The position numbers and the translations under genes were made by a program. From a virus: 64,000 nucleotides of DNA. Location: positions 1 to 64,000 of IMG/VR virus record IMGVR_UViG_3300028827_000129; one strand, given 5' to 3'. Numbering within the stretch: position 1 is the stretch's first letter; every line of letters starts with the position of its first letter. A model generated the notes under the pieces. That model ran no database searches. It was not told the origin of the DNA and saw only the letters and a list, made by a program, of their open reading frames with translations. This document shows positions 4,275 through 58,792 of this stretch, piece by piece.

Positions 4275-5093
4275 TTAATTTTTTAACATATCTTTTGTAA
4301 CACTGAGATCAAAACAAGTCCATGCATCCCACATAAAGTCTTGAATATATCTATAATCTAAATATCCATATCCTTTATCTCCCCAATTTGCAGACCAAGA
4401 GTTTTTGAATTTCACTCTTCTAGTTTTATCGTCGTATCCAACAATGCATACCGCATGACCTCCTAAGCAATATTTTGAGTTACTTGGATATTGAACATAT
4501 CCATCGGGAGTTGGCTTAAACATCTCTTCATAACATCCAATTCCTATTACAACTGGCGATCTAGTTAGGGCAGCTTTTAGTTCTAATAAATTATTAATCC
4601 TAGTATATTCACCAATACGTGTCCATCTTGCAATTAATGTAGCCCAAGATTCAGGGCTTCCTTTGAATTCGTCATTATATTCCCATGCTCCTTCTGTTGG
4701 TGTGCCTAACTTTTGCAAAACTTTTAACCCATAACGAATACTTGTGCCTTCAATATTAGGCCATGGGTCTATTTCTTTGCATTTATAGTAAAGCCATTGT
4801 TCTGATAAATCATAGGGTTTACCGTGCCTATGGTCTTTCTTTCCTGCTGCTACTTCTGCTTTATGTTCTTTAGTTTCTTGCCATTCCTTTAATGCAGTTA
4901 AAGCAAAAGCTACGCAGCTACCTAATTTTCCTTGATTTTTCACTGGAGTCATTTCTTCAGTATAATCAATAAAAACCGGCAAACTTTTTATTAATTCATA
5001 CTGAGTTTTATAAGGCATTCTAGTTAATACTGCATGGTCTCTCATGTCATGCGGATCCTTCATTAAGTTAAACATTTGCATACTTACCTCCAT
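4275..5093 (-). CDS. papain-like cysteine protease (peptidase C1)
   Basis: VKNQGKLGSCVAF (Gln/Cys), GHAVCIVGYD (His), KNSWSANWGDKGYG (Asn). Confidence 0.92.
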   Translation of the reverse strand: MEVSMQMFNLMKDPHDMRDHAVLTRMPYKTQYELIKSLPVFIDYTEEMTPVKNQGKLGSCVAFALTALKEWQETKEHKAEVAAGKKDHRHGKPYDLSEQWLYYKCKEIDPWPNIEGTSIRYGLKVLQKLGTPTEGAWEYNDEFKGSPESWATLIARWTRIGEYTRINNLLELKAALTRSPVVIGIGCYEEMFKPTPDGYVQYPSNSKYCLGGHAVCIVGYDDKTRRVKFKNSWSANWGDKGYGYLDYRYIQDFMWDAWTCFDLSVTKDMLKN

Positions 5094-7528
5094 TAAATTA
5101 GCTTTCTGAAAATATATTCTTTATTATTTAAATTTATTATAATTTCTTTATTCGTATAAGTTCCCATAAAATCAAAATCAGGTCGTGAATTTATAAAATT
5201 GAAACCAGGCTGTAAATTTATACATTTAACTTTTTCTTTTTGTATTTTCTTAACATTTAATTTAGGTTCTAAAATAGCCTTTACATTTAATCTTGGTTCT
5301 GACTTTAACTTATTTAACGTACCTCGAAATATATAAATTTTGCCTTCTTCAAATTGATTTGGATTTATGTTATATGCCGATGCCTCTAAGAAGGAAGATT
5401 CACCTGATATAAAAAACTTCATTATAATCTTGCCGGACCTTGTCTTAATTGTTTCTACGTTTTCTAAACTTCCTATGATATCAACTTTTTGAAAATTTCT
5501 TAATTTATTTACATCTTCACATCTTAACCCTCCTGTATAAAATGAAACTGCATGTTTATATGGATAAAATCCATATGTTTGTCTTTCCATAAAAGTCAAT
5601 TCTATTTCATTATATCTAGTTTCAGGCTCAATCATATAATAATCTAACAATCTTTCTTGTTTTAATTTGTTAATTAAATCGTGTTTAAAAATTTCTTCCT
5701 CTTCCATTGAACCAAAACGTTGACTAGCAGCTTCTTTATTTACACGAGCCATAATTCTTATCATTTTGTCTCTATTTTTCTTTTTAATCGTATATAAATG
5801 ATCAACATTAGCAAATAGTTTTGATCTATCTGATTCTATTTCATCAAAAGCTCCAGCTAGTATTAATGATTTGGTTACAGATGTATCAACAATTGTTGTA
5901 TTAATCCTCTTAACAAAGTCTATTAAGTTCTTAAATGGTCGAGCTTTTATAATTTCTTTTGCAGATTTTTTACTCAATCCTTTAATTGAAGCCAATCCAA
6001 AACGTATTCCATCAGACTCTATTTTAAAGCTACTTGTAGAATGATTAATAGAAGGTGGGTATAACTTAAGCCCATTTTTTTGTGCGTCGCAACAATAAAT
6101 CATTAATTTAACAGAATCGTTAAAGACTGATGACATTAATGCTGTCATATATTCTTTAAGAAAATGTGTTTTAAGATATGCAGTTTGATAAGTAATAAAG
6201 CTATAAGCTACAGCATGTGATTTATTGAACCCATATTCAGCAAAAGCGGCCATTTGGTCAAAAATCTTATTTGCTATATTTTTATCAATATTATTTTTTA
6301 TGCAACCATCAACAAATTTAACACGCTCTGACTCTACTTTATTAACAAGTTTTTTACCTAGAATTTTTCTTAATCCATCAGCTTCAGCAAGTGAATATCC
6401 TGCAAGTTCTCTTGCAATAGCCATAACTTGTTCTTGAAAGATTAGAATGCCATGTGTACTAGCTAATATTTTTTCTAGTTTAGGATGTAGGAGATTGATT
6501 GTAGAGCCATTAAATTTATTTTTAACATAAAGGTCACACATTCCTAATTGGATTGGTCCTGGGCGAAATAAGGCGTTTATATCAGCTATATCACTAATGT
6601 TTTGTGGAACAACTTGCTTAACAAGTTCTGTAATTGCCGACCCTTCTAACTGAAATATTCCTACTGTGTTACCTAAAGCTAGTTGTTTATATGTCTCTTT
6701 ATCATCGAAGGGAATATTATCAATATCCAATTCGATATTTTGAGTTTCTTTTATAAGTTGTTTTGTTTTATTGATAACTGTTAAAGTTTTAAGCCCTAGA
6801 ATATCAAATTTAACAATTCCTAGATCTTCTAGAGCACGCATATCATACTGCGTAACTTTTTCTTTTTTAATAAGTCCTATAGGCGTATAGTCGTATAATG
6901 AAGTATCAGCTATAGCAACACCAGCGGCATGTTGTCCAACATGCCGCATAAGCCCTTCTAATTTTAGCGCATATTGAATAATTTTAGAATTCTTAATTTT
7001 ATTAAGCCTTGGTTCTAGCTTTAGAGCTTCCTCTAAGCTTAATTGCTGACCAGCTACACCGTCAGGAATTAGTTTGGCAATTTTATCTACTTCCTTTAGG
7101 TCTATTTTTAATACTCTACCAATATCTCTTATGGCAGTTTTGGCAAACATACTGCCATAAGTACCAATTCTAGCAACTTTATGTTCTCCATATTTTTCAA
7201 TAAGATATTGAAAAATTTCTTCTCTTCTTTCTTTACAAAAATCCATGTCAATATCTGGCAAAGAGCCAGTTTTGACATTAACTAATCCTTTAGGTTCTTC
7301 GTCAGTTACGCCAAGACAATAAGCAATAGAAGAGTTGCATTTATTAGGCTTGCCTTGAATATTTTTATCTAATAAGTCTTTAAAATAATCTATTATCCAT
7401 GGATTGGTTTTAATTAAGTTGATTTCAAAATTTAACCAATCTTTTGGAACAGTTCTTTTTAGTTCTAATGACTTTTCTTTAATTAGTGAAATAAATTTTT
7501 CTTTAGTCATATTATTTCTCAAAATCAT
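5093..7528 (-). CDS. dnaE: DNA polymerase III alpha subunit, C-terminal part (palm/fingers/HhH/OB)
   Basis: PDIDMDF, HAAGV, KFDILGLKTL, GIFQLE, FNKSHAVAY, IRFGLASIKG; probable start at the second Met (MTKEK). Confidence 0.92.
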   Translation of the reverse strand: MILRNNMTKEKFISLIKEKSLELKRTVPKDWLNFEINLIKTNPWIIDYFKDLLDKNIQGKPNKCNSSIAYCLGVTDEEPKGLVNVKTGSLPDIDMDFCKERREEIFQYLIEKYGEHKVARIGTYGSMFAKTAIRDIGRVLKIDLKEVDKIAKLIPDGVAGQQLSLEEALKLEPRLNKIKNSKIIQYALKLEGLMRHVGQHAAGVAIADTSLYDYTPIGLIKKEKVTQYDMRALEDLGIVKFDILGLKTLTVINKTKQLIKETQNIELDIDNIPFDDKETYKQLALGNTVGIFQLEGSAITELVKQVVPQNISDIADINALFRPGPIQLGMCDLYVKNKFNGSTINLLHPKLEKILASTHGILIFQEQVMAIARELAGYSLAEADGLRKILGKKLVNKVESERVKFVDGCIKNNIDKNIANKIFDQMAAFAEYGFNKSHAVAYSFITYQTAYLKTHFLKEYMTALMSSVFNDSVKLMIYCCDAQKNGLKLYPPSINHSTSSFKIESDGIRFGLASIKGLSKKSAKEIIKARPFKNLIDFVKRINTTIVDTSVTKSLILAGAFDEIESDRSKLFANVDHLYTIKKKNRDKMIRIMARVNKEAASQRFGSMEEEEIFKHDLINKLKQERLLDYYMIEPETRYNEIELTFMERQTYGFYPYKHAVSFYTGGLRCEDVNKLRNFQKVDIIGSLENVETIKTRSGKIIMKFFISGESSFLEASAYNINPNQFEEGKIYIFRGTLNKLKSEPRLNVKAILEPKLNVKKIQKEKVKCINLQPGFNFINSRPDFDFMGTYTNKEIIINLNNKEYIFRKLI

Positions 7529-8690
7529 AAAGTGGGACTGGCACTCTGCCTGGATTTAAAAACCTTTCAAAATATAATCCATATTCTAAAGGATCAACTT
7601 TAGTTATATCTAAACAATATGTTACAAGACTTCCTGCAGAACTACCTCTACCTGCTCCAGTTTCAATTCCTTTATTTTTAGCAGTTTGAATTATATCTTT
7701 AATAATTAAAAAGTAGCTCTCAAAATCCATAAGATCTATTTGTTTTAATTCATATTCTAACCTATCAATATACTTTTTTGATGGTTTAGGAAATTTCTTT
7801 TTGAAACCTGCATATACAGCTCTTTTAAATTCTTCTTTATCATTCTCAATTTTCGGGATTTTTGGAATGCCCAAAGTTAATGTTATATCAATTTGATTAG
7901 CAATTTTAATTGTATTTGTTAAGACTTCTGGCATATGTCCCCATCTTTCCCACATTGTTTCTGGTGATTTAACATAAGTCTCTTCTGTTGTGAATTGTAA
8001 GTTGCCTCCTGTGCCGATTGATAAGAGGATTCTATGAGCCTCTGAATCGTTGGCATCAAGATAATGGCAGTCTGAAGTGATGATAACAGGAATTTTAGCA
8101 TCTTTTGAAAGTTTTAATATCTCCTTATTGAGTTTAACCTGGTCTTCTAGATCAGGTAAATCTTGTATTTCAAGATAAAAATTATTATCAAAAATTTCTT
8201 GGTAATATAAAGCTAATTTTAAAGCTTTTTCATATAAGCCATTTGATATTAATTTTGCTATCTTTCCTTTAAAACATGCACTTGTAGCAATAAGATTATC
8301 TCCATATTTTTCTAATAATTCATGATCAACCCTTGGCACATAATAAAATCCTTCCTCATAAGCTAATGAGGAAAGTTTTACTAGATTTTTATATCCTTGG
8401 TTATTTTTAGCTAATAAAATCATATGATACGCATAATCATATCCTTCTATTTTTTCTTTTCTATACCTTTCAAAAGGTGATACATATACTTCACATCCAA
8501 TAATTGGCTTAACATTATGTTTTTTCATATCAACATAGAAATTATATGCCCTACGCATATTGCCATGATCAGTAATAGCACAAGCTTCCATATTGTATTT
8601 AGCACACTTTTCAGCCAAATTGGATGTTTTTATCATTCCGTCTAAATTACTGCCATCTGTATGAAGATGTAAATGAACGTATTGTTTCAT
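7512..8690 (-). CDS. dnaE: DNA polymerase III alpha subunit, N-terminal part (PHP domain)
   Basis: HLHLHT, AITDHG, GCEVY, SDCHY, GRGSSAGSLVTYCLDIT, FERFLNPGR. Confidence 0.92.
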   Translation of the reverse strand: MKQYVHLHLHTDGSNLDGMIKTSNLAEKCAKYNMEACAITDHGNMRRAYNFYVDMKKHNVKPIIGCEVYVSPFERYRKEKIEGYDYAYHMILLAKNNQGYKNLVKLSSLAYEEGFYYVPRVDHELLEKYGDNLIATSACFKGKIAKLISNGLYEKALKLALYYQEIFDNNFYLEIQDLPDLEDQVKLNKEILKLSKDAKIPVIITSDCHYLDANDSEAHRILLSIGTGGNLQFTTEETYVKSPETMWERWGHMPEVLTNTIKIANQIDITLTLGIPKIPKIENDKEEFKRAVYAGFKKKFPKPSKKYIDRLEYELKQIDLMDFESYFLIIKDIIQTAKNKGIETGAGRGSSAGSLVTYCLDITKVDPLEYGLYFERFLNPGRVPVPLYDFEK

Positions 8691-26142: not shown

Positions 26143-27168
26143 TTAATGAACTAAGTCTTTATTACAATTTTCACATTTTTTATTTTTATTTAAAGGATTA
26201 TAACAAATTTTACAGTAATCTATTTGGTGGAAAGCATCAAAGCATTCTTTGCAAACAATTTGATTTTGTAGAAAATATTTTTTTCCATAAAAAACATCTA
26301 GACAAGAGTCGCAAATATTACCTTTTCCATTTTTAATTCTTTTTTCATACCAACTTTCATAATTCTCATGATTATGCAAATAAGAACTATTACTGTATTT
26401 ACCCTTCTTGACATCAACATCATAAAAAGAAATTGTGTCTCTATATAGATAATCGAACGTCATTTGCTGTTGTAATCCATTTTCATTAATGATTAAACAA
26501 GTGTTTTCACTAACCTCTTGAATATCTTTTGATGGTATAACAAAATTTCTCCATAAAGATTTTCCATTTAGATGGTATAAATATTTCTTAAGCGAAGCAA
26601 AATAAAATATATCATTGATTCTATCATAAAGATAGAATAATGGCCTTTCTTTACGATGTATAATTAACGAATAAGGATTTTCTTTATGATACATTGCAAA
26701 TGTTACAGCACCATTTAGTTGCTTTAAATACGACATTCCTTTTTCAACACCATAATGATCAAATAACCAAGCTATAGAAGCACTATCAACTTTTAGTTGC
26801 AAATTCATCCCATGCCATTCTCTAACAGCTTCATTGTTCATGAGAGTACCATTATGAACTAAAATAGTTTTCTCTAGTTTGATCGGATGATTATTTGTAT
26901 TATCTGATGAACTTCCTACACTACTTTTTCTGGCATGAAGAATCATTGTTTTTGGCAACTCTTCAAGTTTTTTCCAACGTTTTGTTTTTACAAAATCTGA
27001 TGCTTTTAATGGAGCTTTATAAACTATAAAATCTTTTTTATGTTCTGAATAATAACCAAATCCAGAGGCATCTTCTCCTCGTTCTTGTAAATATATAAAT
27101 AACTTCGTCAATAGCTGTTTGTCTGGACGCTTTTCTCCAAAACAATAATAACCTGCAATTCCGCACAT
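26143..27168 (-). CDS. class II glutamine amidotransferase (second copy)
   Basis: MCGIAG, RGEDASG, HAR, NNHP, HNGTL, VDS, FAS. Confidence 0.9.
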   Translation of the reverse strand: MCGIAGYYCFGEKRPDKQLLTKLFIYLQERGEDASGFGYYSEHKKDFIVYKAPLKASDFVKTKRWKKLEELPKTMILHARKSSVGSSSDNTNNHPIKLEKTILVHNGTLMNNEAVREWHGMNLQLKVDSASIAWLFDHYGVEKGMSYLKQLNGAVTFAMYHKENPYSLIIHRKERPLFYLYDRINDIFYFASLKKYLYHLNGKSLWRNFVIPSKDIQEVSENTCLIINENGLQQQMTFDYLYRDTISFYDVDVKKGKYSNSSYLHNHENYESWYEKRIKNGKGNICDSCLDVFYGKKYFLQNQIVCKECFDAFHQIDYCKICYNPLNKNKKCENCNKDLVH

Positions 27169-27648: not shown

Positions 27649-29184
27649 TTAACCCTCTTTATATTTTTCTAACATTTTTTCAACTAATTTACTTTGTTCA
27701 TTATTGATAAGTTTAACAAAAGACATAAAACCATCTACATTGTATGTATCAGGATTGGATTTAATAAATCCTCTCCAAGCATGCATTGTTTTTCTTGGTA
27801 TCCTTAATGTTCCATCTTCATGAACACTGATACCATTAACATTTACATATGGGTAAGTCATAATTTTAAATTTATGTTTATTAATTGGTATATCTAGATA
27901 ATTAACAAAGAAACTTGTTAATTGTTTTTTGAGTTGTAATTTTTCTTCTTTATTAAGTTTCTTAGATAATGATATTGTAATATCATCAACATATCTTGTA
28001 TATGCAACCATTTTTGCTTTTGTTGCTCTGTATATAAGTTTGCGTAAAAAATTTATATACTTTTGTTCTATTCTAGACATGACAATATTAAAAATATATG
28101 TTGACGTAGGACTGCCAATGGGTAAAATAAACCCATTATTATTTGGTAATATTGTGTAATCAATAATTTTAGACGATATTAAACTAGTAAATCTTGAATG
28201 GATTAAACGTTTATAAATACGATTTCTATTCCCCATTAAAATATTATGAAAAGCATTTTTTATATCAACTTTTACCCAAGTTATTGGAGCATTCTTTTTA
28301 CTGAAATGATATTTGATAGCATCAACCATATTTCTGTTTTTAACTCCTCCATAGCTATATTTGCCAGGAGAAATATTTTTATAAAGTATTTTTAAGATAT
28401 CACGTTGTAAATTTTTAATATTTTCATTTGGCTTATGAATAAATCTAATACCTCCATTGCTTTTTTTGATAAAATATGTTTTATAAAGTTTATTTATTGC
28501 AACTCCATCAACATTGTTATCTTTAAATGACTGTGATAAGATAATAGTATTATCCAAATCTTTTTTAAAATTATGTTTACCACTCTTAACATATGTATAT
28601 ACTGAAATAAATTGATCTAGTAATGCTTTTATGACATCCCAAGATTGATCTATCTTTTTATTTTTCTTAAGATATTTTAATTTCTGTTTATGAACATTAA
28701 AATCTATTTCTTTCCCATTAATATAAATAGTTATGGCTAAAAGAGACATGAATTGATATCCTAATGTATTAAAAAAATTCATATTTATTACTTCATTATC
28801 ATTTTTTTGTATAAATTGTATTATATTTTCGTAAGACTCTCCATTAGTTTTTTCAATAACATCTTTTAATTGCAAATCTTTATACTTATCAGGAATAGTT
28901 CCATTTTTTATATGTGTGGCAATTTCATAAAACAGATTTGCTTGTTTTATATCAGAATCATTAAACCAATCCATAAATGCTTTTTTATATATATTTAAAA
29001 CTTGTATTTCCATTTTAGACAAAGAAATTTCTGGTTGTTTTTTTTCTGTATCTGGCCATTTTAAGATATAGTAAAACAATGTAATTGGACTGCAAGTATA
29101 GAACCTTTTGTCATTATAAAGTTTTACTGCCATGTTTCTTAAATTTAAATAATTTATCATACTACTATATTTTTTCTTTTGCAT
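27649..29184 (-). CDS. reverse transcriptase, retron-like, with a ~230-aa N-terminal extension
   Basis: IKKSNGGIRFIHKP, SYGGVKNR, AIKYH (region X-like), KVDIKNAF, LPIGSPTS, YTRYVDDITIS, INKHK, VNG (VTG-like). GGAGG 5 nt upstream of the ATG at 29184 suggests this start rather than 29211. Confidence 0.88.
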   Translation of the reverse strand: MQKKKYSSMINYLNLRNMAVKLYNDKRFYTCSPITLFYYILKWPDTEKKQPEISLSKMEIQVLNIYKKAFMDWFNDSDIKQANLFYEIATHIKNGTIPDKYKDLQLKDVIEKTNGESYENIIQFIQKNDNEVINMNFFNTLGYQFMSLLAITIYINGKEIDFNVHKQKLKYLKKNKKIDQSWDVIKALLDQFISVYTYVKSGKHNFKKDLDNTIILSQSFKDNNVDGVAINKLYKTYFIKKSNGGIRFIHKPNENIKNLQRDILKILYKNISPGKYSYGGVKNRNMVDAIKYHFSKKNAPITWVKVDIKNAFHNILMGNRNRIYKRLIHSRFTSLISSKIIDYTILPNNNGFILPIGSPTSTYIFNIVMSRIEQKYINFLRKLIYRATKAKMVAYTRYVDDITISLSKKLNKEEKLQLKKQLTSFFVNYLDIPINKHKFKIMTYPYVNVNGISVHEDGTLRIPRKTMHAWRGFIKSNPDTYNVDGFMSFVKLINNEQSKLVEKMLEKYKEG

Positions 29185-29194
29185 TAATTCCTCC

Positions 29195-29318
29195 ATTTTC
29201 GAACCTTTCATATTTTGAATTTATGAAAGGTTCAAAATTTAAAGCGTACTCTTTATTTGAGTACTAAATAAAGAAGAAAGCACTTAAGCGAAAACACTTA
29301 GGCTTATAAAAACTTTTT
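29195..29318 (-). ncRNA. structured RT leader / candidate retron-type ncRNA
   Basis: Hairpins at 29278-29305, 29250-29274 (9 bp) and 29196-29237 (12-bp core) fill the intergenic region. Confidence 0.5.
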
Positions 29319-29513
29319 TTATTTACTATAGCCGTTTGAACTCCATCCTACTCCACCTGGTTTTAAAATAAATGAAGTATTGACAATTATTTTTGTTGCT
29401 ATATTATTGCATTTTGGACATTTTGCCCAATTTCTTTCATCATAAATAGAACGTTGTAGTTCAAATTGATGTTTACATTTTGGATTATCACATGCAAAAA
29501 CATAAATTGGCAT
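29319..29513 (-). CDS. FmdB-family zinc-ribbon protein
   Basis: MPIYVFACxxxxCxHxFE...CPKC...GVGW; start adjusted to MPIY. Confidence 0.85.
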   Translation of the reverse strand: MPIYVFACDNPKCKHQFELQRSIYDERNWAKCPKCNNIATKIIVNTSFILKPGGVGWSSNGYSK

Positions 29514-29851
29514 TTTAAATTCCTCCATTATGTTTTTCTTTTCGCTTTATAGGATATGTGTTTAAAATATCATTTAAAACTTGTAATAAAGTTTTCTTGT
29601 CCTTTTTTAACTCTTCTGGCCATACATAAAATGCAGTATTTCCTTTGTCTTTTATGCCTTTTACTTTAAATCGGATTCTTTTTGTTGAATATAAAGGAAT
29701 AATTTCTTCTATAACAACTTCTCTCTTTTTTGCAAATGCTACTTTTGGATCATAATAAAATGTTTTATATAATAATTTATTTTCTGCAAAAGCTACTTGT
29801 TCATAAAATAATTTATTATTTTCCATCTTAATTTTCTTTTTTTCTCTTATT

Positions 29852-36643: not shown

Positions 36644-37981
36644 TTAAATTTCACAGTTATCCTCTAATTCGGCCATTGCTGTTTTACGGATTTCTTCAAA
36701 AGTATATTCAACGAAAAACTTTCCATTTTTCCATACGAGCGGTAAATTGAGATAATCAAATCTGCCAGCTTTACTTTTCTTCCATTGGCAGTCTTTAGGT
36801 TGTTTATATACACTTCTCCAACCTTCTCCAGGAATATGAATAGCAGATATCTTCATGGCATAACCATATGTGTCACGATTAACTTGTTGTAAAGAACCTC
36901 CACCCATTCCAAAGGCAATATTATCAGCTGACCATTTATTTTTTTCCATCACTGAAAGAATTTCTTCTATGTTATCTGGACTAGAAATACCATCACCTTG
37001 AATAAGTCTTATACAGTCTGGTAAAACCTTATATCCTTTTTTATTAATAGAACTACCAAAAGCTTCTTCAAGTTCATTTAACGAACGAAGAACAACTTCT
37101 GAAGGTTCACCAGAATCTGGCCTTACAACAAGTGTTCCGCCAGATTTGAATATCTGTGATTTGAGCTGTTTTCCCCAAATATTTCTAATAGCATTTGAAA
37201 GATCATAACTATCAGAAACACATGCCGCTATCTTACCTTCGCCAAGAAAATTATCAATAAAATTTTTGTATGCGTTGGCTTCATTGGCTCTGCCCCATGA
37301 AGTAATAGTTGAATGTTCGGCTGCATTAATGGAGAATCCCAGCATTGAATCAGTATTATAATATTTTTGTGCAGCGAAAATGCCTGCTATTGTATCTGTT
37401 CCCATAGAAGTAGTAAGCTCAGCCATACCACCAATAGCAGCTGATTCTTCAGAGCTGGTACCTCTATATCCAAATGAATGTAGTTTAAATGGTGCTAAAG
37501 AAGGATCGCCAGTATAATTCAGATATTTAAGAATAATCTTCTTACATTCAAATTGTCTTGTAGCAACAGTACATGGGTACCATATTTGAAGAAGGCGTGT
37601 TTCTATCCAGCCAGGAAGCCAACCAAAATCTGGATGCGTAGATTCGATAGTTACCTGTACTTCGCCAATATCGACCAAATGCCCTTCTTTAACTGCTCTA
37701 ATTTCTAAAGGATAATAACCTAAATCGGCTAATTGCATCCAGCCTTTTTTGTTAAAAGCTACTCCATGTGCTTCCCAAAACTTAGCTGCCTCTTCAACGT
37801 CAGACTTTGATGGTACATTACTTAAAATTTTTTTAATGATGGCTTGTAGACCGAAGAATAATATCTCATCTCCTCCGCGCCTAGCTTCAATGTAATAGTA
37901 AGTGCCTGTGTTTTGTGGGAATTGTAGAAAATGACTTGCTTTATAAGAGTCAGTAGATGTAATTAAAGTGTTATTCATCAT
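36644..37981 (-). CDS. nadV: nicotinamide phosphoribosyltransferase
   Basis: TDSYKASH, FGYRG, AAEHS, VSDSYD, VVRPDSG, IQGDGI, FGMGG. Confidence 0.93.
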   Translation of the reverse strand: MMNNTLITSTDSYKASHFLQFPQNTGTYYYIEARRGGDEILFFGLQAIIKKILSNVPSKSDVEEAAKFWEAHGVAFNKKGWMQLADLGYYPLEIRAVKEGHLVDIGEVQVTIESTHPDFGWLPGWIETRLLQIWYPCTVATRQFECKKIILKYLNYTGDPSLAPFKLHSFGYRGTSSEESAAIGGMAELTTSMGTDTIAGIFAAQKYYNTDSMLGFSINAAEHSTITSWGRANEANAYKNFIDNFLGEGKIAACVSDSYDLSNAIRNIWGKQLKSQIFKSGGTLVVRPDSGEPSEVVLRSLNELEEAFGSSINKKGYKVLPDCIRLIQGDGISSPDNIEEILSVMEKNKWSADNIAFGMGGGSLQQVNRDTYGYAMKISAIHIPGEGWRSVYKQPKDCQWKKSKAGRFDYLNLPLVWKNGKFFVEYTFEEIRKTAMAELEDNCEI

Positions 37982-39376: not shown

Positions 39377-40534
39377 TTATCCTTTTACATTAATAATGGG
39401 CTTAAGATATGCAATTATTTCAACCAAATCTTTTTGCATTTCTATAACCTCAAAAATATTTTTATATGCCATAGGGCTTTCATCTATAGTAGAAGAAGCT
39501 ACTTTAGCTTTTATATCTTTCATTGCAGTTCGAAAATCTTCCATATCTATAGATTCTTTTGCCTTTTTTCTACTCATAACTCTTCCAGCTCCATGAGAGC
39601 TGGAAAATAAAGACTCTTCATTCCCAAGGCCACGAACAACAAAGGAGCCATCTCTCATATTACCGGGAATAATACCATACATGTTATACTCTGCTTGTGT
39701 AGCCCCTTTACGATGTATCCAAACCTTACGACCATTTATCTGTTTAGATTCACAATGATTGTGATTTCTGTTTATTACTATGCTGGTATCAAATTTAGGA
39801 ACATAATTTGATAGTATAGCTAATATTTCGTTAGCTATTACTTCCCTATTTTTTAAAGCAAACCGCAAACATACTTCCATATCCATCAAATAATTTTTTC
39901 CTTCTTTAGAATCTACAGAGAGCCCATAATGCTTTTCTCTTACTTTATTATCTGGAGAAGCTAAACGCATATAATGTGTAGCCATGCTATGGCCGACATT
40001 TCTGCTACCTGAATGTATCACTATCCAAACATATGAATCTTCATCATAGGCAATTTCTGCCATATGATTGCCACCACCAAGAGTGCCAAGTTGATATAAG
40101 CCACCTTTTTCTTCAAACATCTGTTCGAATTCTGGAGTTTTAGCTATTTTTTTATATTCATTCCAAGAAATAGGATATTCTCGATGTTTATGTCCTACTG
40201 GAATTCTATCATAAATGTTAGAGAAAATCTTATCTATATATGGTTGGATTTCTTCACGAACAATAGAAGTTTTAATTCCATATACTCCACAGCCTTGATC
40301 GTAACCCACCCAACTTGGGACAACTATATGTTCTGTGGCAACTACTGCTCCAATAGGCAACGAATACCCGGCATGAGCATCTGGCATTAAAGTTCCACGT
40401 ACTACAAAAGGTTGTTCCATAGCAGAAATAAATTGTTCTGCAGCTTCTCTTTCTAGTTGTTTTATAAAAAGAGCAACCTTCTTATCTTTTGGCAATCTAA
40501 ATAAAACTTCTTCTTTTGTGATCATAGCGCACAT
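39377..40534 (-). CDS. rtcB: RNA-splicing ligase RtcB
   Basis: MPDAHAG, GYDQGCG, GTLGGGNH, HSGSR, HNH, HRKGAT, SHGAGR, DESPMAYK. Confidence 0.95.
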   Translation of the reverse strand: MCAMITKEEVLFRLPKDKKVALFIKQLEREAAEQFISAMEQPFVVRGTLMPDAHAGYSLPIGAVVATEHIVVPSWVGYDQGCGVYGIKTSIVREEIQPYIDKIFSNIYDRIPVGHKHREYPISWNEYKKIAKTPEFEQMFEEKGGLYQLGTLGGGNHMAEIAYDEDSYVWIVIHSGSRNVGHSMATHYMRLASPDNKVREKHYGLSVDSKEGKNYLMDMEVCLRFALKNREVIANEILAILSNYVPKFDTSIVINRNHNHCESKQINGRKVWIHRKGATQAEYNMYGIIPGNMRDGSFVVRGLGNEESLFSSSHGAGRVMSRKKAKESIDMEDFRTAMKDIKAKVASSTIDESPMAYKNIFEVIEMQKDLVEIIAYLKPIINVKG

Positions 40535-46113: not shown

Positions 46114-46467
46114 TTATTTATGAACATATCCTAAAGCATGCCAAATTTCATGCCCTAATACTTTTTGGGCATAACCGTTATCCCAATATCGTAAAGGAGG
46201 AGTAATAATTACATTAGATTCTCGCCAATAACACCCAGCTGCGTTTCCATTACATAAAAACGCTCTTTTTTCTGCCTTGTTTACAATCCAGATGTCTGCA
46301 TTTAAATGCTTAACTTTAATACCATCATCTATATTGTTATATGTTTGTAAAGTAGAACAAGAAGATGACAAAATAATTAAAAGCATATAGAAAAACAGAA
46401 TAATATGCTTCATATATTTATACAATCTCCTTTTTCTTAAATAAATATTTATAGATTTTATCTCCAT
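46114..46467 (-). CDS. small lipoprotein-like protein with HExxH motif
   Basis: Hydrophobic segment plus Cys; GHEIWHALG. Confidence 0.55.
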   Translation of the reverse strand: MEIKSINIYLRKRRLYKYMKHIILFFYMLLIILSSSCSTLQTYNNIDDGIKVKHLNADIWIVNKAEKRAFLCNGNAAGCYWRESNVIITPPLRYWDNGYAQKVLGHEIWHALGYVHK

Positions 46468-47569
46468 TAGCTAAAAATTGTTTTCTTAATTCTGCAATAC
46501 CTTTATCTTTGTCTCTAATGTTTTTATTGTAAATATCAAAAAGTATAAATGTAAACAGTGTTTTGCGCTTCTTAGTAATATAAAGTGCAAACTCCTTTCT
46601 ATCTGTAAATCTTACGGCATTAAGCCAAGTATATTCAAGTTCAGCTAAGTGATAATTAACTTCCTTTTCAATTTTTTCATACAGATTTTTAACTTCTGGA
46701 AAATATGTTAATAATTCTTCTTTTTCGCCTTTTAATACAAATTGAAGAATATGTTTAACAGAAAATTGGTTATTTGGACCCTTTAAGGCTGCTAAAGCTA
46801 TATATTGTTTATTTTTTATTTTTATTCGTAATCCATTACAATCTTGTAGGACGAGACCTTCAAAGGTTACATCTTTTTTTGATACTTCATTGATAAATTC
46901 TATTACAGTTTTATAATTCGGAAAATTATAAACAGATGGTAATTTTGCACCTATCTTCTTAGCGATAAAATGGAAAACATTAAGAGGATACTCTTGTAAT
47001 GTATTGTTATCAATAACATTTAATAAATATGAAGTTGGTTTTCTATATTCTCGTACAACTTTATTTGCTAAAGAACAAAATTCAAAACAATAAGTGAGGT
47101 TAGGATTAAAAAACTTTTGACAATGATCAGCTAAAGAATCCCAAAATAATTCAGAGAATGTTTTTGGACTTTCAAAGCATTTATGATCACCAAAAGTTTG
47201 GCGTGTATTAGCAAACCATTGATTAAAAGCGTGATAAACAATTATTAACGTGCCGTCTTCTTTCGAGATAGATGTAAACGGTTTATTCCATACAAAAGCA
47301 TCAGTAATTGCTTTTGCCTCGCCAAAATTAAAAAATCTTGTAAAAGGTTTAGCTGCAACTGAAAAATTGTGTCCTTCTTTCTTTAATACAAGTCCTCTAC
47401 ACTCCATTACAATGGGATGTGTTTTAGGACTATTTAACTGATCATAATTAAGAATAAAAAGAGGATATGCTGGATGAGGAATTACTTTGATGGCAAATTG
47501 ATTAGTAAGATCTTCAAGAGAATGTTCTTCTAAATATTTTAGAACATTCAATTGATAGCTGGAATTCAT
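46418..47569 (-). CDS. T4 Rnl1-like RNA ligase
   Basis: ECRGLVL, RFFNFGE, KEDGT, FEF, EGLVL, RIKIK. Confidence 0.9.
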   Translation of the reverse strand: MNSSYQLNVLKYLEEHSLEDLTNQFAIKVIPHPAYPLFILNYDQLNSPKTHPIVMECRGLVLKKEGHNFSVAAKPFTRFFNFGEAKAITDAFVWNKPFTSISKEDGTLIIVYHAFNQWFANTRQTFGDHKCFESPKTFSELFWDSLADHCQKFFNPNLTYCFEFCSLANKVVREYRKPTSYLLNVIDNNTLQEYPLNVFHFIAKKIGAKLPSVYNFPNYKTVIEFINEVSKKDVTFEGLVLQDCNGLRIKIKNKQYIALAALKGPNNQFSVKHILQFVLKGEKEELLTYFPEVKNLYEKIEKEVNYHLAELEYTWLNAVRFTDRKEFALYITKKRKTLFTFILFDIYNKNIRDKDKGIAELRKQFLANGDKIYKYLFKKKEIV

Positions 47570-54520: not shown

Positions 54521-54961
54521 TTATTTCAAAGTAACACATGTGATAAATGGAAAATTCAGAGAGTCTATTATTTGCTCTATAATTTTCCAGTTACCACCTG
54601 CGAGACCAGCTCCTATCCTAGGAATCCCAATTTTTAAATTGCCAAAGCATTCCTTAACTAAAAACATTGAAAATTTAATTGCTTGATAATCTACTTGTTT
54701 GGTTCTACGACCATAAAAATATTGAGTGTACGCATTAATTATGAACTTATCGTTTGCTAATTTTGCAACACTTATTGTTCCAAGTTTTGTACGGTCGCCA
54801 TATGAAGTTTTCAAATCAACTTCATAAGCTTGAGGATACCGCTTTTTAATTTGTAAAGCGATACCAGCGCCCATTTTATGAAAACAATTGCATCCATGAA
54901 CAATAACATTAAAATAACCACTGTCAAAAAGATCAAGCAAATTGCCTTTAAGATAATTCAT
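54521..54961 (-). CDS. macrodomain protein (ADP-ribose-binding/hydrolase, T4 Tk.4-like)
   Basis: GNLLD, VHGCNCFHKMGAGIA, NAYTQ, PRIGAGLAGGNW. Start moved to 54961 because the longer ORF runs through tRNA-Gln. Confidence 0.88.
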   Translation of the reverse strand: MNYLKGNLLDLFDSGYFNVIVHGCNCFHKMGAGIALQIKKRYPQAYEVDLKTSYGDRTKLGTISVAKLANDKFIINAYTQYFYGRRTKQVDYQAIKFSMFLVKECFGNLKIGIPRIGAGLAGGNWKIIEQIIDSLNFPFITCVTLK

Positions 54962-54997
54962 AATATGACTCTCATGGTTACATAGTGAAAACACGAG

Positions 54998-55071
54998 TGG
55001 CTGGCCCGCAGGGATTCGAACCCCGATCCCGAGAGTCAAAGTCTCGTGTCCTGCCATTGAACGACGGGCCA
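54998..55071 (-). tRNA. tRNA-Gln(TTG)
   Basis: Cloverleaf, loop CTTTGAC, CCA. Confidence 0.95.
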
Positions 55072-55180
55072 AAAAATGAAAAGCAAAAGAAGAATAAATT
55101 CATACCAGACAGAGGCCAGATGTCTGGTATATTTTCTAATTACGACTCTGGCTGAAGGCCGACTTTCTTTAAAACACATA

Positions 55181-55585
55181 AAAAAAGATTATGGTTTAAA
55201 AGGAAGTCCCAAGGTAGGCTGAACTAAAAACCTATTTATCCCTCCTTGGCAAGGATAAAAGGTTAAGTGTCCTGCAACATATCCAGGATATGGGGTCTGC
55301 ACCTTTCGGTAACCCTTTCGCCAAGGTTTTTTTAGAGCTGATTCCACAACTACCTTTCGGTGGCTGTTTCATAATCAACCCTTAACCATGCTCTAATTTG
55401 CATTAGAGGTTAGGTCCTTGACTCCACCCACAGCCTACCTCAACATAGGTGAGTTTCGCAATCTGTGGGAATCAGCAAGCAGTAATAGAAAAATAAATAC
55501 TTGGGTACAGCTTACGGGGAAGCTCGGATGGATAACATAAAGAAGTCATTTACCTCCATCTATTTATTTTCATATAATCTTTTTT
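55181..55585 (-). ncRNA. large structured ncRNA of unknown class
   Basis: 12-bp end pairing, nested long-range helices, GAAA tetraloops, raised GC, no ORF of 60 aa or more. Confidence 0.65.
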
Positions 55586-56059
55586 ATTTCAAAAATGATT
55601 TATTGAGAGATTATATTATTTATTTTGCAGTAAATTTCTGATTATTTTTTTCTAGCTACGTCGGTTACCGCAAACAGTACACACCCATACTTCTGTTCCT
55701 GACTTCGACTTACCCTTATTATGGAGTCTCTTATATTTACCATAAACTTTGTCCTGATAAGAATGTTCGCAAGAACAGATAATAATTTTAGTAAGATTCT
55801 TAGACATAATTTCCTCCAAAGCTTTAAGTTAGTTTTTTAAATAATGTTCTTTATTTTATATTGTTATCTTCAATCTTAGCCCAATGTATTGTTATAAAAT
55901 CCATTAAAACATCATAGTCTGACATAAATTCATAATCAGCATGACGTTTTCTCATCATATTAACAATTTCATCAGCCAGCAATTTACGTGTAACACATTT
56001 ACCATTAGGTAATGGTTCTATAAATGTAACCACAGCATGTGGATTATAGTTATATTTAT

Positions 56060-56905
56060 TCATATACATTTACTCACTTTACGACAAATTTCAACCCAGC
56101 GGTAGTAGTTCTCCTTCGTCATTGGGAGGATAGGAAAGAACTCTTTGAACACAACTGTGCGCTCGCCAATATTATTGACGCGCTTTAGGGTTGAAGTGTT
56201 CCAGAAGTTCAGTGCTTCTTCCACAGATCTGTCCTCGATAAAGTGGGTTATTGGCAGCTGGCGTTTTGCAATAATATACTGCTGTGAGGTAAGGCAAAGG
56301 AATGCTAGTGGTGGGGAATTGTGAGGTGAAACAATAACCTGCGGAGAGTAACCGAAGTAATAGGTACCATTCACAGCCCTATTTGGGGCATAGATGTTGT
56401 AGTGCGGCTGGAGTTTTGCGCCACAAGCAGTTGTTGGCTTGAAAAATTCTTCCAGGCTGCTATAGAGGACAAACTTAACCGTCAGGCGGTGTTGGTAACG
56501 CCTTGCCAACTCAGTCAGGGCCATGTCACGAATGGCCAGAGCAGCCTCCTTTGACCGAGTGGCACACCACTTTAAGTATGGACTTTCATTGCGGCAGCAT
56601 TTCATTAGACTTGGTGACCTCTTTGGCGATTTCCAAATGGGAATGAGACAATACATACATTTTGTGTTTGAACAAGACTGCTCCCCGTGGAGCGCTACCT
56701 GTTTGAGACCATACTCGCATATTGCACAGTTCGCAGCAACATTGTGCCAATAGTTGAAACCAGGCCAGCGTAGCTTAGCTTTCCAAAGAGAACTGTCATG
56801 GCTCGGGTTATCTGCGAGCCAGTCCCACTGTGCGGCTGTAACAGCGAGGGCCACCTCCGGTTGACCTAAATGCATCTTAGGTTTACAACATTTAGGTCTT
56901 TGCAT
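56060..56905 (-). CDS. Cys/Trp-rich protein, paralogue A
   Basis: WDWLA...RWPGFNYW...CAICEY...CMYC...ALAIRDMALTEL. Confidence 0.7.
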   Translation of the reverse strand: MQRPKCCKPKMHLGQPEVALAVTAAQWDWLADNPSHDSSLWKAKLRWPGFNYWHNVAANCAICEYGLKQVALHGEQSCSNTKCMYCLIPIWKSPKRSPSLMKCCRNESPYLKWCATRSKEAALAIRDMALTELARRYQHRLTVKFVLYSSLEEFFKPTTACGAKLQPHYNIYAPNRAVNGTYYFGYSPQVIVSPHNSPPLAFLCLTSQQYIIAKRQLPITHFIEDRSVEEALNFWNTSTLKRVNNIGERTVVFKEFFPILPMTKENYYRWVEICRKVSKCI

Positions 56906-57803
56906 ATAGCGTCTCCTTGACTTTATTAATAAGCTTAATCAGCGCTGTGCAGTTGTTGTTTGTCAACGGCATGATTGGCAGAAATTCCTTGAAGATGAGC
57001 TCTTGCTCGTTAGCTTTGCGCTTGCGCCACTCGGCAGACTCCCAGAAGCTGAGCGCAGACGCGACATGCGAGTTAATTAAGAAGTGCGTGCAAGACAGCA
57101 CGCTACGTGCGATAGTATACTGCTGCGAGGTAAGGCACAGCCACGTAGAGGGATCGTGTAGCCGCCAACCGTAGATTGCTTGAACGCCATACCCGAAGTA
57201 GTAGGTACCATCGACTGCTCGATTGGGTGCATAGATCTCATAACTAGACTGGAGCATACGCCCCGCGTTTGTTATAGGCCTGTAAAGGCCTTCCTTAGCG
57301 GTGTAGCAAAACGACTTCAAAGCGAGGCGCTTCCAATGGTGCCGTACTAGCTCAGTGAGAGCCATGTCACGGATAGCTAGCGCAGCCTCTTTAGAGCGTG
57401 TAGTACACCACCGCTTATAGATGCTCTGCCCAACGAGGCACTTGTGGGTAGGCCATGCGCGCCAAGCTGGAATTAAACAATAGTAGCATTTTTGTCGACC
57501 TCCTTGGAGCTTGCCGTATTCGCAAAGTATGCAGGCTGAACGTATACCATAGCCCCAATAATTGAAGCCGGGCCAGCGTAACTTGACTTCTCTAGGTTCG
57601 GCGTTGTTTGAGTTGCTTGCGAGCCAGTTCCAGTGAGCAGCCATAGCAGCAAGAGCTACTTCTGGTTGGCTTAAATTCATTTTTGGTTTGCGACATTTAG
57701 GTTTTTTCATGCGGTACCTCCGTGTAGTAGCTAAGTTAGTGGAACCGCTAGGGCTTAATTTCCTTATATCCAATAAGTCACTTAACAATTCGCTGCATAT
57801 CAA
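56892..57803 (-). CDS. Cys/Trp-rich protein, paralogue B
   Basis: Same motifs as A; true start probably MKKPK after GGAGG. Confidence 0.7.
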   Translation of the reverse strand: MICSELLSDLLDIRKLSPSGSTNLATTRRYRMKKPKCRKPKMNLSQPEVALAAMAAHWNWLASNSNNAEPREVKLRWPGFNYWGYGIRSACILCEYGKLQGGRQKCYYCLIPAWRAWPTHKCLVGQSIYKRWCTTRSKEAALAIRDMALTELVRHHWKRLALKSFCYTAKEGLYRPITNAGRMLQSSYEIYAPNRAVDGTYYFGYGVQAIYGWRLHDPSTWLCLTSQQYTIARSVLSCTHFLINSHVASALSFWESAEWRKRKANEQELIFKEFLPIMPLTNNNCTALIKLINKVKETLYAKT

Positions 57804-58081: not shown

Positions 58082-58792
58082 TTATTCAAATGCACACGTA
58101 GATGAAGAAATCCTAATCCAATCTATTGCTTGTTTGTTGGGCATCTTGTCAGCGAGTTTGAATCCGGTTTCGGCCATGCGCTCAATACTGATCTGTCCAC
58201 GGCAGATGCCTTGCACAAGTAAGCCGAAGTCGCGGTCATAGTTAGGTAACATATAGTCGGATGGCTTGTAGGTAGCTCGGCTCCTGTCGATGCAGATAGC
58301 GTTTTGTCCGCTCCGGTATTTGATTGTAAGACCAATGCTGTAGTCGATAGCGGCTACATAAGCCTTCTTGGTATCAGTAAACGGAATTTCCAATTTGACG
58401 TTACGGCCATGTAAACTGCTGTACATTTCGTGTAGAACTTGATAAGCCAATCTAGAGATACTGGCTGCTGCCTCCGTGTCGTAAGAATCAAGCCATCTTC
58501 CGTAAGGTGAGTCTGGGTCTGTACATAAGGAGGTTTTACTATTAGCCCAGCGACCTAAAAGTGGGCACTTTAGGCACGTGTCGCCGTGGTGAACATCGTA
58601 CCAGCAACAGGCGCAATCCAATGGTATCTTGAGGTACTGCAGCATCGGCCACTTAGATTTGTCGGCAGCATGGTTCGTAGCGACCCACTCCCAGTGCTCA
58701 GCACAAACAAGTAAGGCAAGGCGCTTTGTAGGCTGCTTCGGCCAGGGTGCTCCAAGGAACTTCTTTGCGTCAAGCATCTTGGTCCTCCACAT
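58082..58792 (-). CDS. Cys/Trp-rich protein, paralogue C (shares the N-terminal domain only)
   Basis: HWEWVA...KWP...CACCWY...CLKCPL...SPYGRW. Confidence 0.65.
   Translation of the reverse strand: MWRTKMLDAKKFLGAPWPKQPTKRLALLVCAEHWEWVATNHAADKSKWPMLQYLKIPLDCACCWYDVHHGDTCLKCPLLGRWANSKTSLCTDPDSPYGRWLDSYDTEAAASISRLAYQVLHEMYSSLHGRNVKLEIPFTDTKKAYVAAIDYSIGLTIKYRSGQNAICIDRSRATYKPSDYMLPNYDRDFGLLVQGICRGQISIERMAETGFKLADKMPNKQAIDWIRISSSTCAFE

Follow-up and report, generated by a model that had tools for sequence, protein, structure and literature searches.

The tRNA gene cluster of phage T4 encodes small stable RNAs, species 1 and 2, of about 120–140 nt, which are non-tRNA RNAs lying among the phage tRNA genes and are probably co-transcribed with them and released by tRNA-processing enzymes; we know of no tetraloop-receptor modules in these RNAs. 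GOLLD (RF02032) and ROOL are large, ornate structured RNAs of phages and prophages with raised GC content that lack open reading frames (ORFs) and occur by tRNA genes, their lengths being about 580 and about 800 nt (cryo-EM: PMC12286853). The LOOT RNA motif (RF03000) (Weinberg et al. 2017, PMC5737381) is found on mobile or viral DNA, and four genuine members from viral contigs consist of four side-by-side hairpins over 118–130 nt, namely a receptor hairpin, a long variable hairpin, a GAAA hairpin and a GNRA hairpin. In group I introns, the P5b–P6a module (as in the Tetrahymena P4–P6 domain) combines CCUAA and AUGG strands at the base of a hairpin with C–G-closed GAAA loops nearby. The candidate RNA analyzed here shares features with each of these systems. 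It is encoded on the minus strand at positions 55181–55585 of the window, that is, the first 64 kb of the 170,083-bp IMG/VR record of an uncultivated phage with direct terminal repeats, and lies 110 nt upstream of a tRNA-Gln(UUG) gene. Based on its composition, its predicted fold and its partial resemblance to LOOT, the stretch is probably a functional structured RNA of some kind; the more specific reading, that it is a stable, compact, minus-strand structured noncoding RNA (ncRNA) derived from a transcript that also yields tRNA-Gln, stands at about an even chance.

Composition and predicted fold of the candidate RNA

A real structured RNA is the most economical reading because a GC elevation confined to ORF-free DNA, the correct strand, a dominant three-hairpin fold, a statistically significant match to the receptor/GAAA module of LOOT, a family backed by covariation, and an enrichment in long helices coincide in one place. 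Between 2 kb and 64 kb, every long ORF and each of the eight or nine tRNA genes is on the minus strand, so that the candidate RNA sits 5′ of tRNA-Gln. The initial annotation, a reading of the sequence that had proposed an ornate ncRNA of ~400 nt beside the phage tRNA, is thus most likely right in placing a minus-strand RNA just upstream of this gene. The raised GC content that it had noted is also borne out: the value is 0.40 for the whole stretch and 0.43 for its middle, as against 0.22–0.32 in most other gaps of the genome, whose overall GC content is 0.357. Several of the other high-GC gaps within the window contain tRNAs or tRNA-like RNAs. Only the DNA without ORFs shows this elevation, and an A/T-rich interval of about 470 nt sets it apart from the GC-rich genes upstream. 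The predicted parts of the RNA and its immediate surroundings are as follows.

55181–55585, minus strand: flagged stretch, an upper limit for the candidate RNA; 405 nt, GC 0.40, no ORF over 52 aa.
55574–55585, minus strand: 5′ arm of an outer 12-bp A/U helix, with its partner at 55181–55192.
55483–55573, minus strand: 5′ A/U-rich hairpin domain, an 11-bp A/U stem around two small hairpins; weakly supported (z −2.16).
55331–55482, minus strand: core, made up of three hairpins in a row; no other sub-domain clearly exceeds shuffles in stability.
55427–55469, minus strand: hairpin B, first in the core; 7-bp stem CCCACAG/CUGUGGG and a 29-nt weakly paired loop with AGGUAGG.
55384–55416, minus strand: receptor hairpin H1; 4-bp base GACC/GGUU, CCUAAC/CAUGG internal loop, 7-bp stem and GCAA loop.
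55334–55382, minus strand: extended hairpin H3; 10-bp lower stem AGGGUUGAUU/AAUCAGCUCU, internal loop and 8-bp GAAA-capped stem.
55468–55476, minus strand: 5′ arm of helix A, GCUGAUUCC, forming 9 bp with 55337–55345.
55337–55345, minus strand: 3′ arm of helix A, GGAAUCAGC, competing with the lower stem of H3.
55431–55440, minus strand: 5′ arm of helix C, AGGUAGGCUG, falling within hairpin B (loop and 3′ stem); pair probability 0.87.
55212–55221, minus strand: 3′ arm of helix C, CAGCCUACCU, which follows the hairpin B loop at a distance of about 210 nt.
55293–55315, minus strand: second GAAA hairpin (GGGUUACC-GAAA-GGU...ACCC) in the 3′ region, preceded by a GGC-GAAA-GGG element.
55102–55130, minus strand: hairpin of 10 bp without mismatch, then a U-rich tract; located between the candidate RNA and the tRNA-Gln gene.
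54998–55071, minus strand: tRNA-Gln(UUG), 110 nt downstream of the flagged stretch.

The minus-strand fold of the whole stretch gave a z score of −3.8 relative to shuffled sequences, and that of the plus strand −2.8. When the parts were folded separately, z was −3.70 for the core, −2.16 for the 5′ A/U-rich part and −0.96 for the 3′ 144 nt, which locates the fold signal in the 152-nt core (−54.4 kcal/mol), whose minimum free energy (MFE) structure has a frequency of 0.168 and thus makes up 17% of the ensemble. Because only these about 150 nt fold better than shuffles and the end helix is ordinary for an A/T-rich genome, the proposed length of ~400 nt is to be taken as an upper bound. The complementary words on which the proposal was built are present, namely the perfect 12-nt inverted repeat of the ends (55181–55192/55574–55585), the long-range 9-nt pair GCTGATTCC/GGAATCAGC (55337–55345/55468–55476), and the 10-nt pair AGGTAGGCTG/CAGCCTACCT (55212–55221/55431–55440) and 7-nt pair CCCACAG/CTGTGGG (55427–55433/55463–55469), which overlap by 3 nt. 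Perfect helices of at least 9 bp number four in the stretch compared with a mean of 0.55 in dinucleotide shuffles, four being reached in 2 of 300 shuffles (p about 0.01).

Several of these helices exclude one another. Forcing helix A together with hairpin B yielded −113.2 kcal/mol versus −122.3 kcal/mol for the MFE fold, a cost of about 9 kcal/mol. The fold with helix C (−122.3 kcal/mol) and the fold with hairpin B (−120.0 kcal/mol) are nearly isoenergetic, and a 7-bp version of helix C (AGGUAGG/CCUACCU) is compatible with hairpin B as an H-type pseudoknot. The suggestion that the competing 7-bp and 10-bp pairings form a pseudoknot or a switch is therefore topologically possible and appears to be a fair description, folding not having decided between the two.

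GAAA loops with C–G closing pairs, which read correctly on the minus strand alone, are found as described earlier at 55347–55366 and 55293–55315. The former caps the upper stem of H3, which has 8 bp with one C·A mismatch. The classical 11-nt GAAA-tetraloop receptor is CCUAAG/UAUGG (bioRxiv 10.1101/2024.03.11.584472), and H1 departs from it solely at the closing G·U, which is here C/C; H1 would thus be a variant receptor with putative GAAA binding. A receptor hairpin of the H1 type occurs once in the 170-kb genome when both strands (340 kb) are searched. Two other structural candidates were rejected. A kink-turn in the internal loop of H3 has its G·A pairs in the wrong register, and a target-site duplication, seen as a 7-nt ATAATCT direct repeat flanking the element, is accompanied by no terminal inverted repeats and is likely a chance occurrence in A/T-rich DNA.

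The absence of a long ORF was likewise found as claimed: the longest has 52 aa, and the minus strand has no ATG-started ORF of 30 aa or more within the stretch. A small protein would have to be encoded by the 52-aa GTG ORF (55192–55347) or by a 25-aa ORF behind GGAGG at about 55553. In our reading of the sequence, GAAAGG stands 6 nt before the GTG and GGAGG 3 nt before the ATG, but these putative ribosome-binding sites are inside predicted stems, and the 52-aa ORF has no homologue among 5.8 billion proteins, its own sequence not being on record as a called gene; coding function is accordingly extremely improbable. A pseudogene of a gene from the same genome was also considered and rejected, since blastx of the stretch against the rest of the genome found no protein similarity.

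Relation to LOOT and other RNA families

At Rfam gathering scores, only tRNAs were recovered from the window. In a permissive search of a 1-kb segment (54900–55900) against all 4227 families at E ≤ 10, LOOT was the only significant non-tRNA match, at 55333–55416 on the minus strand, with 35.1 bits against a cut-off of 46.4 bits and an E-value of 9.2e-5. The score was the same in a whole-genome search; the E-value was 3.7e-6 with the LOOT family alone and about 0.02 once we had scaled it to the whole genome. The initial annotation had assigned no family, which holds at threshold, and had not noticed this significant sub-threshold resemblance. In the same 1-kb search, models of GOLLD, ROOL, group I and group II introns, RNase P, tmRNA, 6S RNA and ribozymes gave no match at E ≤ 10. 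This outcome, together with the finding of no tmRNA by ARAGORN, agrees with the earlier failure to recognize intron, RNase P or tmRNA cores, and it indicates that the target is neither GOLLD nor ROOL, the RNAs to which it had been likened. The target is phage-borne, ORF-free, raised in GC content and close to tRNA genes like those RNAs, but its 150–400 nt compare with their about 580 and about 800 nt, and it is a single sequence without a family.

The full-length LOOT alignment (1–121) keeps all invariant CCUAA / C...G / CAUGG and GAAA positions. Of the four hairpins that define LOOT, the first is represented by H1 (55384–55416), with the CCUAA-n-C ... G-CAUGG loop and all of its invariant positions, and the likeness comprises the 4-bp base, the CCUAAn/CAUGG internal loop, a stem of about 7 bp and a tetraloop. 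The third corresponds to the upper part of H3 (55347–55366), with a stem of about 8 bp and the invariant GAAA, so that an 8-bp GAAA-capped hairpin follows the receptor hairpin in both RNAs. The size is similar as well, counting the 150-nt core of the target alone. In contrast, the second hairpin, which has 40–50 nt in genuine members, is missing: 49 model positions are skipped and just 14 nt are present there. The fourth, a 6–7-bp GNRA hairpin right after the third in LOOT, aligns to GUGGAAUCAGCUCUA with non-canonical pairs, and these bases pair elsewhere in the MFE fold. The target also differs in having an extra long hairpin in front, in carrying its GAAA hairpin on a 10-bp extension, and in having C/C in the receptor where LOOT has A/C. 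The same variant, CCUAAC/CAUGG, occurs in a truncated LOOT-like RNA (L032).

The four genuine LOOTs from viral contigs scored 90.9 (L053), 75.2 (L054), 68.8 (L060) and 47.1 bits (L062), and a long ORF starts 45–72 nt after each of them, whereas no gene start lies within 260 nt downstream of the target, the next gene being a tRNA; this position is a feature seen in the four viral members and not a curated criterion of the family. Two of these members, L054 (2421–2538) and L060 (7852–7981), are on one 40.7-kb viral contig (IMGVR_UViG_3300025323_000435), each with an ORF within about 60 nt. The receptor and GAAA words are also present in four group I introns (L059, L061, L195 and L201); these gave no LOOT match at E ≤ 10 and were all recognized as group I, two of the four scoring below the Rfam cut-off. 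The LOOT match therefore needs hairpin geometry and not the words alone.

The resemblance is thus specific to LOOT-type hairpin geometry but spans half of the family's defining architecture, and the target RNA is, judged from its sequence, not a LOOT member. A true divergent LOOT that has lost its second and fourth hairpins and works like LOOT, probably as a cis-acting leader before a gene, would explain the retention of every invariant nucleotide of the first and third hairpins and the sharing of the receptor variant with the truncated LOOT-like RNA. This explanation is improbable, given a score 11 bits under the gathering cut-off, the skipped second and non-canonically paired fourth hairpins, the embedding of the module between other helices, and the lack of a gene start for more than 260 nt where genuine viral members precede an ORF. 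The candidate RNA rather appears to share a two-hairpin module with LOOT in a different architecture.

A group I intron, or a free-standing derivative such as a P4–P6-like domain, was also considered, since the combination of the receptor with GAAA hairpins is typical of these introns and pattern scans with these words mostly recovered them. As in P4–P6, CCUAA and AUGG strands stand at a hairpin base with C–G-closed GAAA loops near, and a P-element-like AUUGCGAAAC can be picked out by eye. However, the closing pair of the receptor is C/C and not G·U, the order of elements differs, and there are no exons. The group I model (RF00028) gave no match at E ≤ 10 in the 1-kb search, though five control introns scored 33–88 bits. 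In our reading, the helix order does not fit P3-P4-P6-P7-P3′-P8-P7′, with the candidate P3 and P7 partners on the wrong side; no split ORF flanks the stretch, and ARAGORN with introns allowed found no split tRNA. An intron origin is accordingly very improbable.

Relatives of the RNA were sought by several routes. A blastn search with 551 nt against 50,697 phage records at E ≤ 1e-5 returned nothing, and one with 290 nt at E ≤ 10 returned a single 26-nt match (E 0.08) to the P9 hairpin of a group I intron of Staphylococcus phage PT1-1, which would speak for an intron but is read as chance. The PT1-1 record (PP212900.1, about 26211–26820) contains tandem group I introns (locus L214, 1409–1634, 41.5 bits, and 1684–2018, 51.4 bits) just upstream of the annotated start of the tape-measure gene, where only short hypothetical ORFs are annotated; this suggests that unannotated introns interrupt the tape-measure gene of PT1-1. 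Four IUPAC pattern scans of IMG/VR viral contigs found no relative, the matches being chance matches, the four genuine LOOTs, the truncated LOOT-like RNA and group I introns. Two R/Y-coded scans of JGI metagenome contigs, in which stem transitions are tolerated, gave zero matches. The 43 loci obtained by scanning 185,579 species genomes once were without exception group I introns or matches due to chance. Searching these collections with a covariance model would be far more sensitive than such scans, whose lack of matches is therefore weak evidence. Relatives of the neighboring Macro-domain protein are at most 59% identical, and neither their loci nor their complete records contain a LOOT-like RNA. 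The 281-aa protein encoded upstream is an orphan, and the surroundings of the weak relatives of its N-terminal part yielded no similar RNA; no related viral contigs were reached through the DnaE and T5.085-like proteins. All four public DNA runs come from a single sample, the source of the window; with contigs identical to it, they provide no population variants.

The main rival to a functional RNA is a fortuitous or vestigial structure, in which complementary words and one receptor-like hairpin occur by accident in a spacer devoid of function or in the decayed remains of an intron, of a tRNA-linked element or of foreign DNA richer in GC. Several observations favor it and weigh against a compact RNA released from a tRNA transcript. 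No homologue was found by scans, BLAST or neighboring proteins in any collection searched. Across the first 19.5 kb, coding sequence included, z ≤ −3.5 is reached by about 5% of windows of 150 nt (mononucleotide shuffles), and the 3′ third of the stretch does not surpass shuffles in stability. The genome has about 20 loci with perfect 12-mer inverted repeats 100–500 nt apart, so that the outer A/U helix is not special and may be due to chance, and that so many helices exclude one another could be a matter of low-complexity complementarity rather than design. The receptor deviates from the canonical motif at its closing pair. No sigma-70 promoter or intrinsic terminator was called around the RNA on the minus strand, a lone TATAAT at 55610–55615 having no −35 element, and no RNA run is listed among the public runs. 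GC-rich orphan genes lie 0.5 kb upstream, so that foreign DNA is close by. On the other hand, the E-value of the LOOT match (9e-5 locally, about 0.02 when genome-scaled) is hard to obtain by chance, helices are enriched beyond shuffles, the core has a dominant single fold, and the rise in GC content stays within DNA lacking ORFs, with an A/T-rich interval between it and the GC-rich genes. The case for more than chance is mixed, and the stretch is partly beyond chance; a fortuitous structure is a serious possibility but, all told, unlikely.

Genomic neighborhood and phage context

RNA-related genes are abundant around the candidate RNA. Genes for tRNA-Ile, tRNA-Lys, tRNA-Leu, tRNA-Arg, a further tRNA-Leu and tRNA-Gln are in the region, and the following protein genes are interspersed among the tRNA genes or lie next to the stretch.

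36644–37981: nicotinamide phosphoribosyltransferase.
39377–40534: RtcB.
46418–47569: Rnl1-like RNA ligase.
54521–54970: Macro-domain protein (PHROG "phosphatase").
55655–55807, minus strand: 51-aa basic zinc-ribbon-like ORF with four Cys residues (C-x-C ... C-x-x-C), the upstream neighbor, ending 67 nt before the flagged stretch.

The first four of these together look like an RNA-repair and NAD module. The zinc-ribbon-like ORF has one homologue, with 60% identity, on a Logan contig in which ORFs rather than a gap come after it; its product is conceivable as a putative RNA-binding partner of the candidate RNA.

Further upstream are three Cys-rich paralogous ORFs of 281, 303 and 236 aa (56060–56905, 56892–57803 and 58082–58792, all minus strand), which share LRWPGFNYW, TRSKEAALAIRDMALTEL and APNRAV-GTYYFGY motifs and have a GC content of about 0.5 versus 0.36 for the genome. 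They have no Pfam, PHROG or PADLOC match and essentially no relatives among 1.84 billion representatives, just the N-terminal about 120 aa weakly matching small phage proteins. On a Logan contig (SRR34517539, about 1240–1600 of locus L215), a gap of roughly 1 kb lies upstream of a weak relative of this N-terminal domain and contains at least two tRNA-like T-arm/acceptor sequences (GGTTCAAATCC...), so that this phage, too, puts a Cys-rich-related gene beside tRNAs.

The phage also encodes a retron-like reverse transcriptase (RT), which raises the question of whether the stretch is an msr-msd-like template/primer RNA with its paired ends as the a1/a2 repeats. The RT protein (27649–29211, minus strand) has 520 aa, of which residues about 240–518 constitute the reverse transcriptase (RVT_1, 67.8 bits) and the N-terminal 235 carry no assignment; its best models are retron RTs (retron_St85_RT, 99 bits; PADLOC RT_II-A, RT-Protease_XI and RT_III-A), all scores being far below the curated retron cut-offs. 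A 300-nt A/T-rich gap (29212–29514) is found upstream of the RT gene. The ends of the stretch do form a perfect 12-bp A/U duplex, but 12-mer A/U inverted repeats are common in this genome, and the only RT gene is 26 kb away. Retron ncRNAs directly adjoin their RT gene. In addition, the 5′ arm is not immediately followed by a guanosine, the nearest G being 3 nt further on, and the body of the stretch is not one long msd-type hairpin. A retron RNA is therefore scarcely credible here.

The replicative polymerase of the phage is of the DnaE (Pol III alpha) type and is encoded by two adjacent overlapping ORFs of 392 and 811 aa (7512–8690 and 5093–7528, minus strand) that match consecutive parts of one PHROG profile, which indicates either a split gene or a frameshift. 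No close relative of the phage was found among 50,697 phage records, to any of which this polymerase is at most 39% identical, and it led to no related IMG/VR contig.

Proposed biogenesis and significance

Based on the predicted fold and the genomic setting, a possible route to the compact ncRNA proposed here can be outlined. The RNA would be co-transcribed with the neighboring genes and tRNA-Gln, no convincing promoter or terminator lying between them. In the transcript, the core of about 150 nt may fold into the long hairpin B, the variant-receptor hairpin and the long GAAA-capped hairpin. Compaction could follow through docking of one GAAA loop into the receptor, and a 7–10-bp pairing of the hairpin B loop with CCUACCU about 210 nt downstream may tie the 3′ region to the core, acting either as a pseudoknot or as an alternative state. 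The 3′ end could then be set by RNase P cleavage at the 5′ end of tRNA-Gln or by the hairpin at 55102–55130, leaving a nuclease-resistant RNA. This hairpin, which a terminator scan did not call on the minus strand, is a possible candidate for the 3′ end or for a protective hairpin. The closest analogy would be with the small stable RNAs of phage tRNA clusters, such as T4 species 1 and 2. As for the role of the RNA, a protein-binding scaffold or decoy tied to the phage tRNA and RNA-repair gene cluster is our guess.

A bolder version holds that an as yet undescribed class of phage RNAs is sampled here for the first time, a class of pseudoknotted, tetraloop-receptor-based molecules about 300–400 nt long that would be released from a tRNA transcript and act as a self-assembling particle like ROOL and GOLLD or as a decoy or scaffold in a contest over tRNAs. 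It fits a phage that has RtcB, an Rnl1-like ligase, a Macro-domain protein, odd tRNA mimics and a retron-type RT, and we consider it improbable.

The case for the compact ncRNA rests on a single sequence; it is a lead rather than a discovery and is not yet strong enough to bear much weight. If the RNA is real, the few RNAs other than tRNAs that come from phage tRNA clusters would be joined by an orphan structured one, and the module of receptor hairpin and GAAA hairpin that defines LOOT could exist outside the LOOT architecture. This would bear on whether near-threshold LOOT matches mark homology or a reusable folding module. The phage itself, with its DnaE-type polymerase, RNA-repair enzymes, retron-like RT and several odd RNAs, is unusual and may be a useful source for RNA biology.

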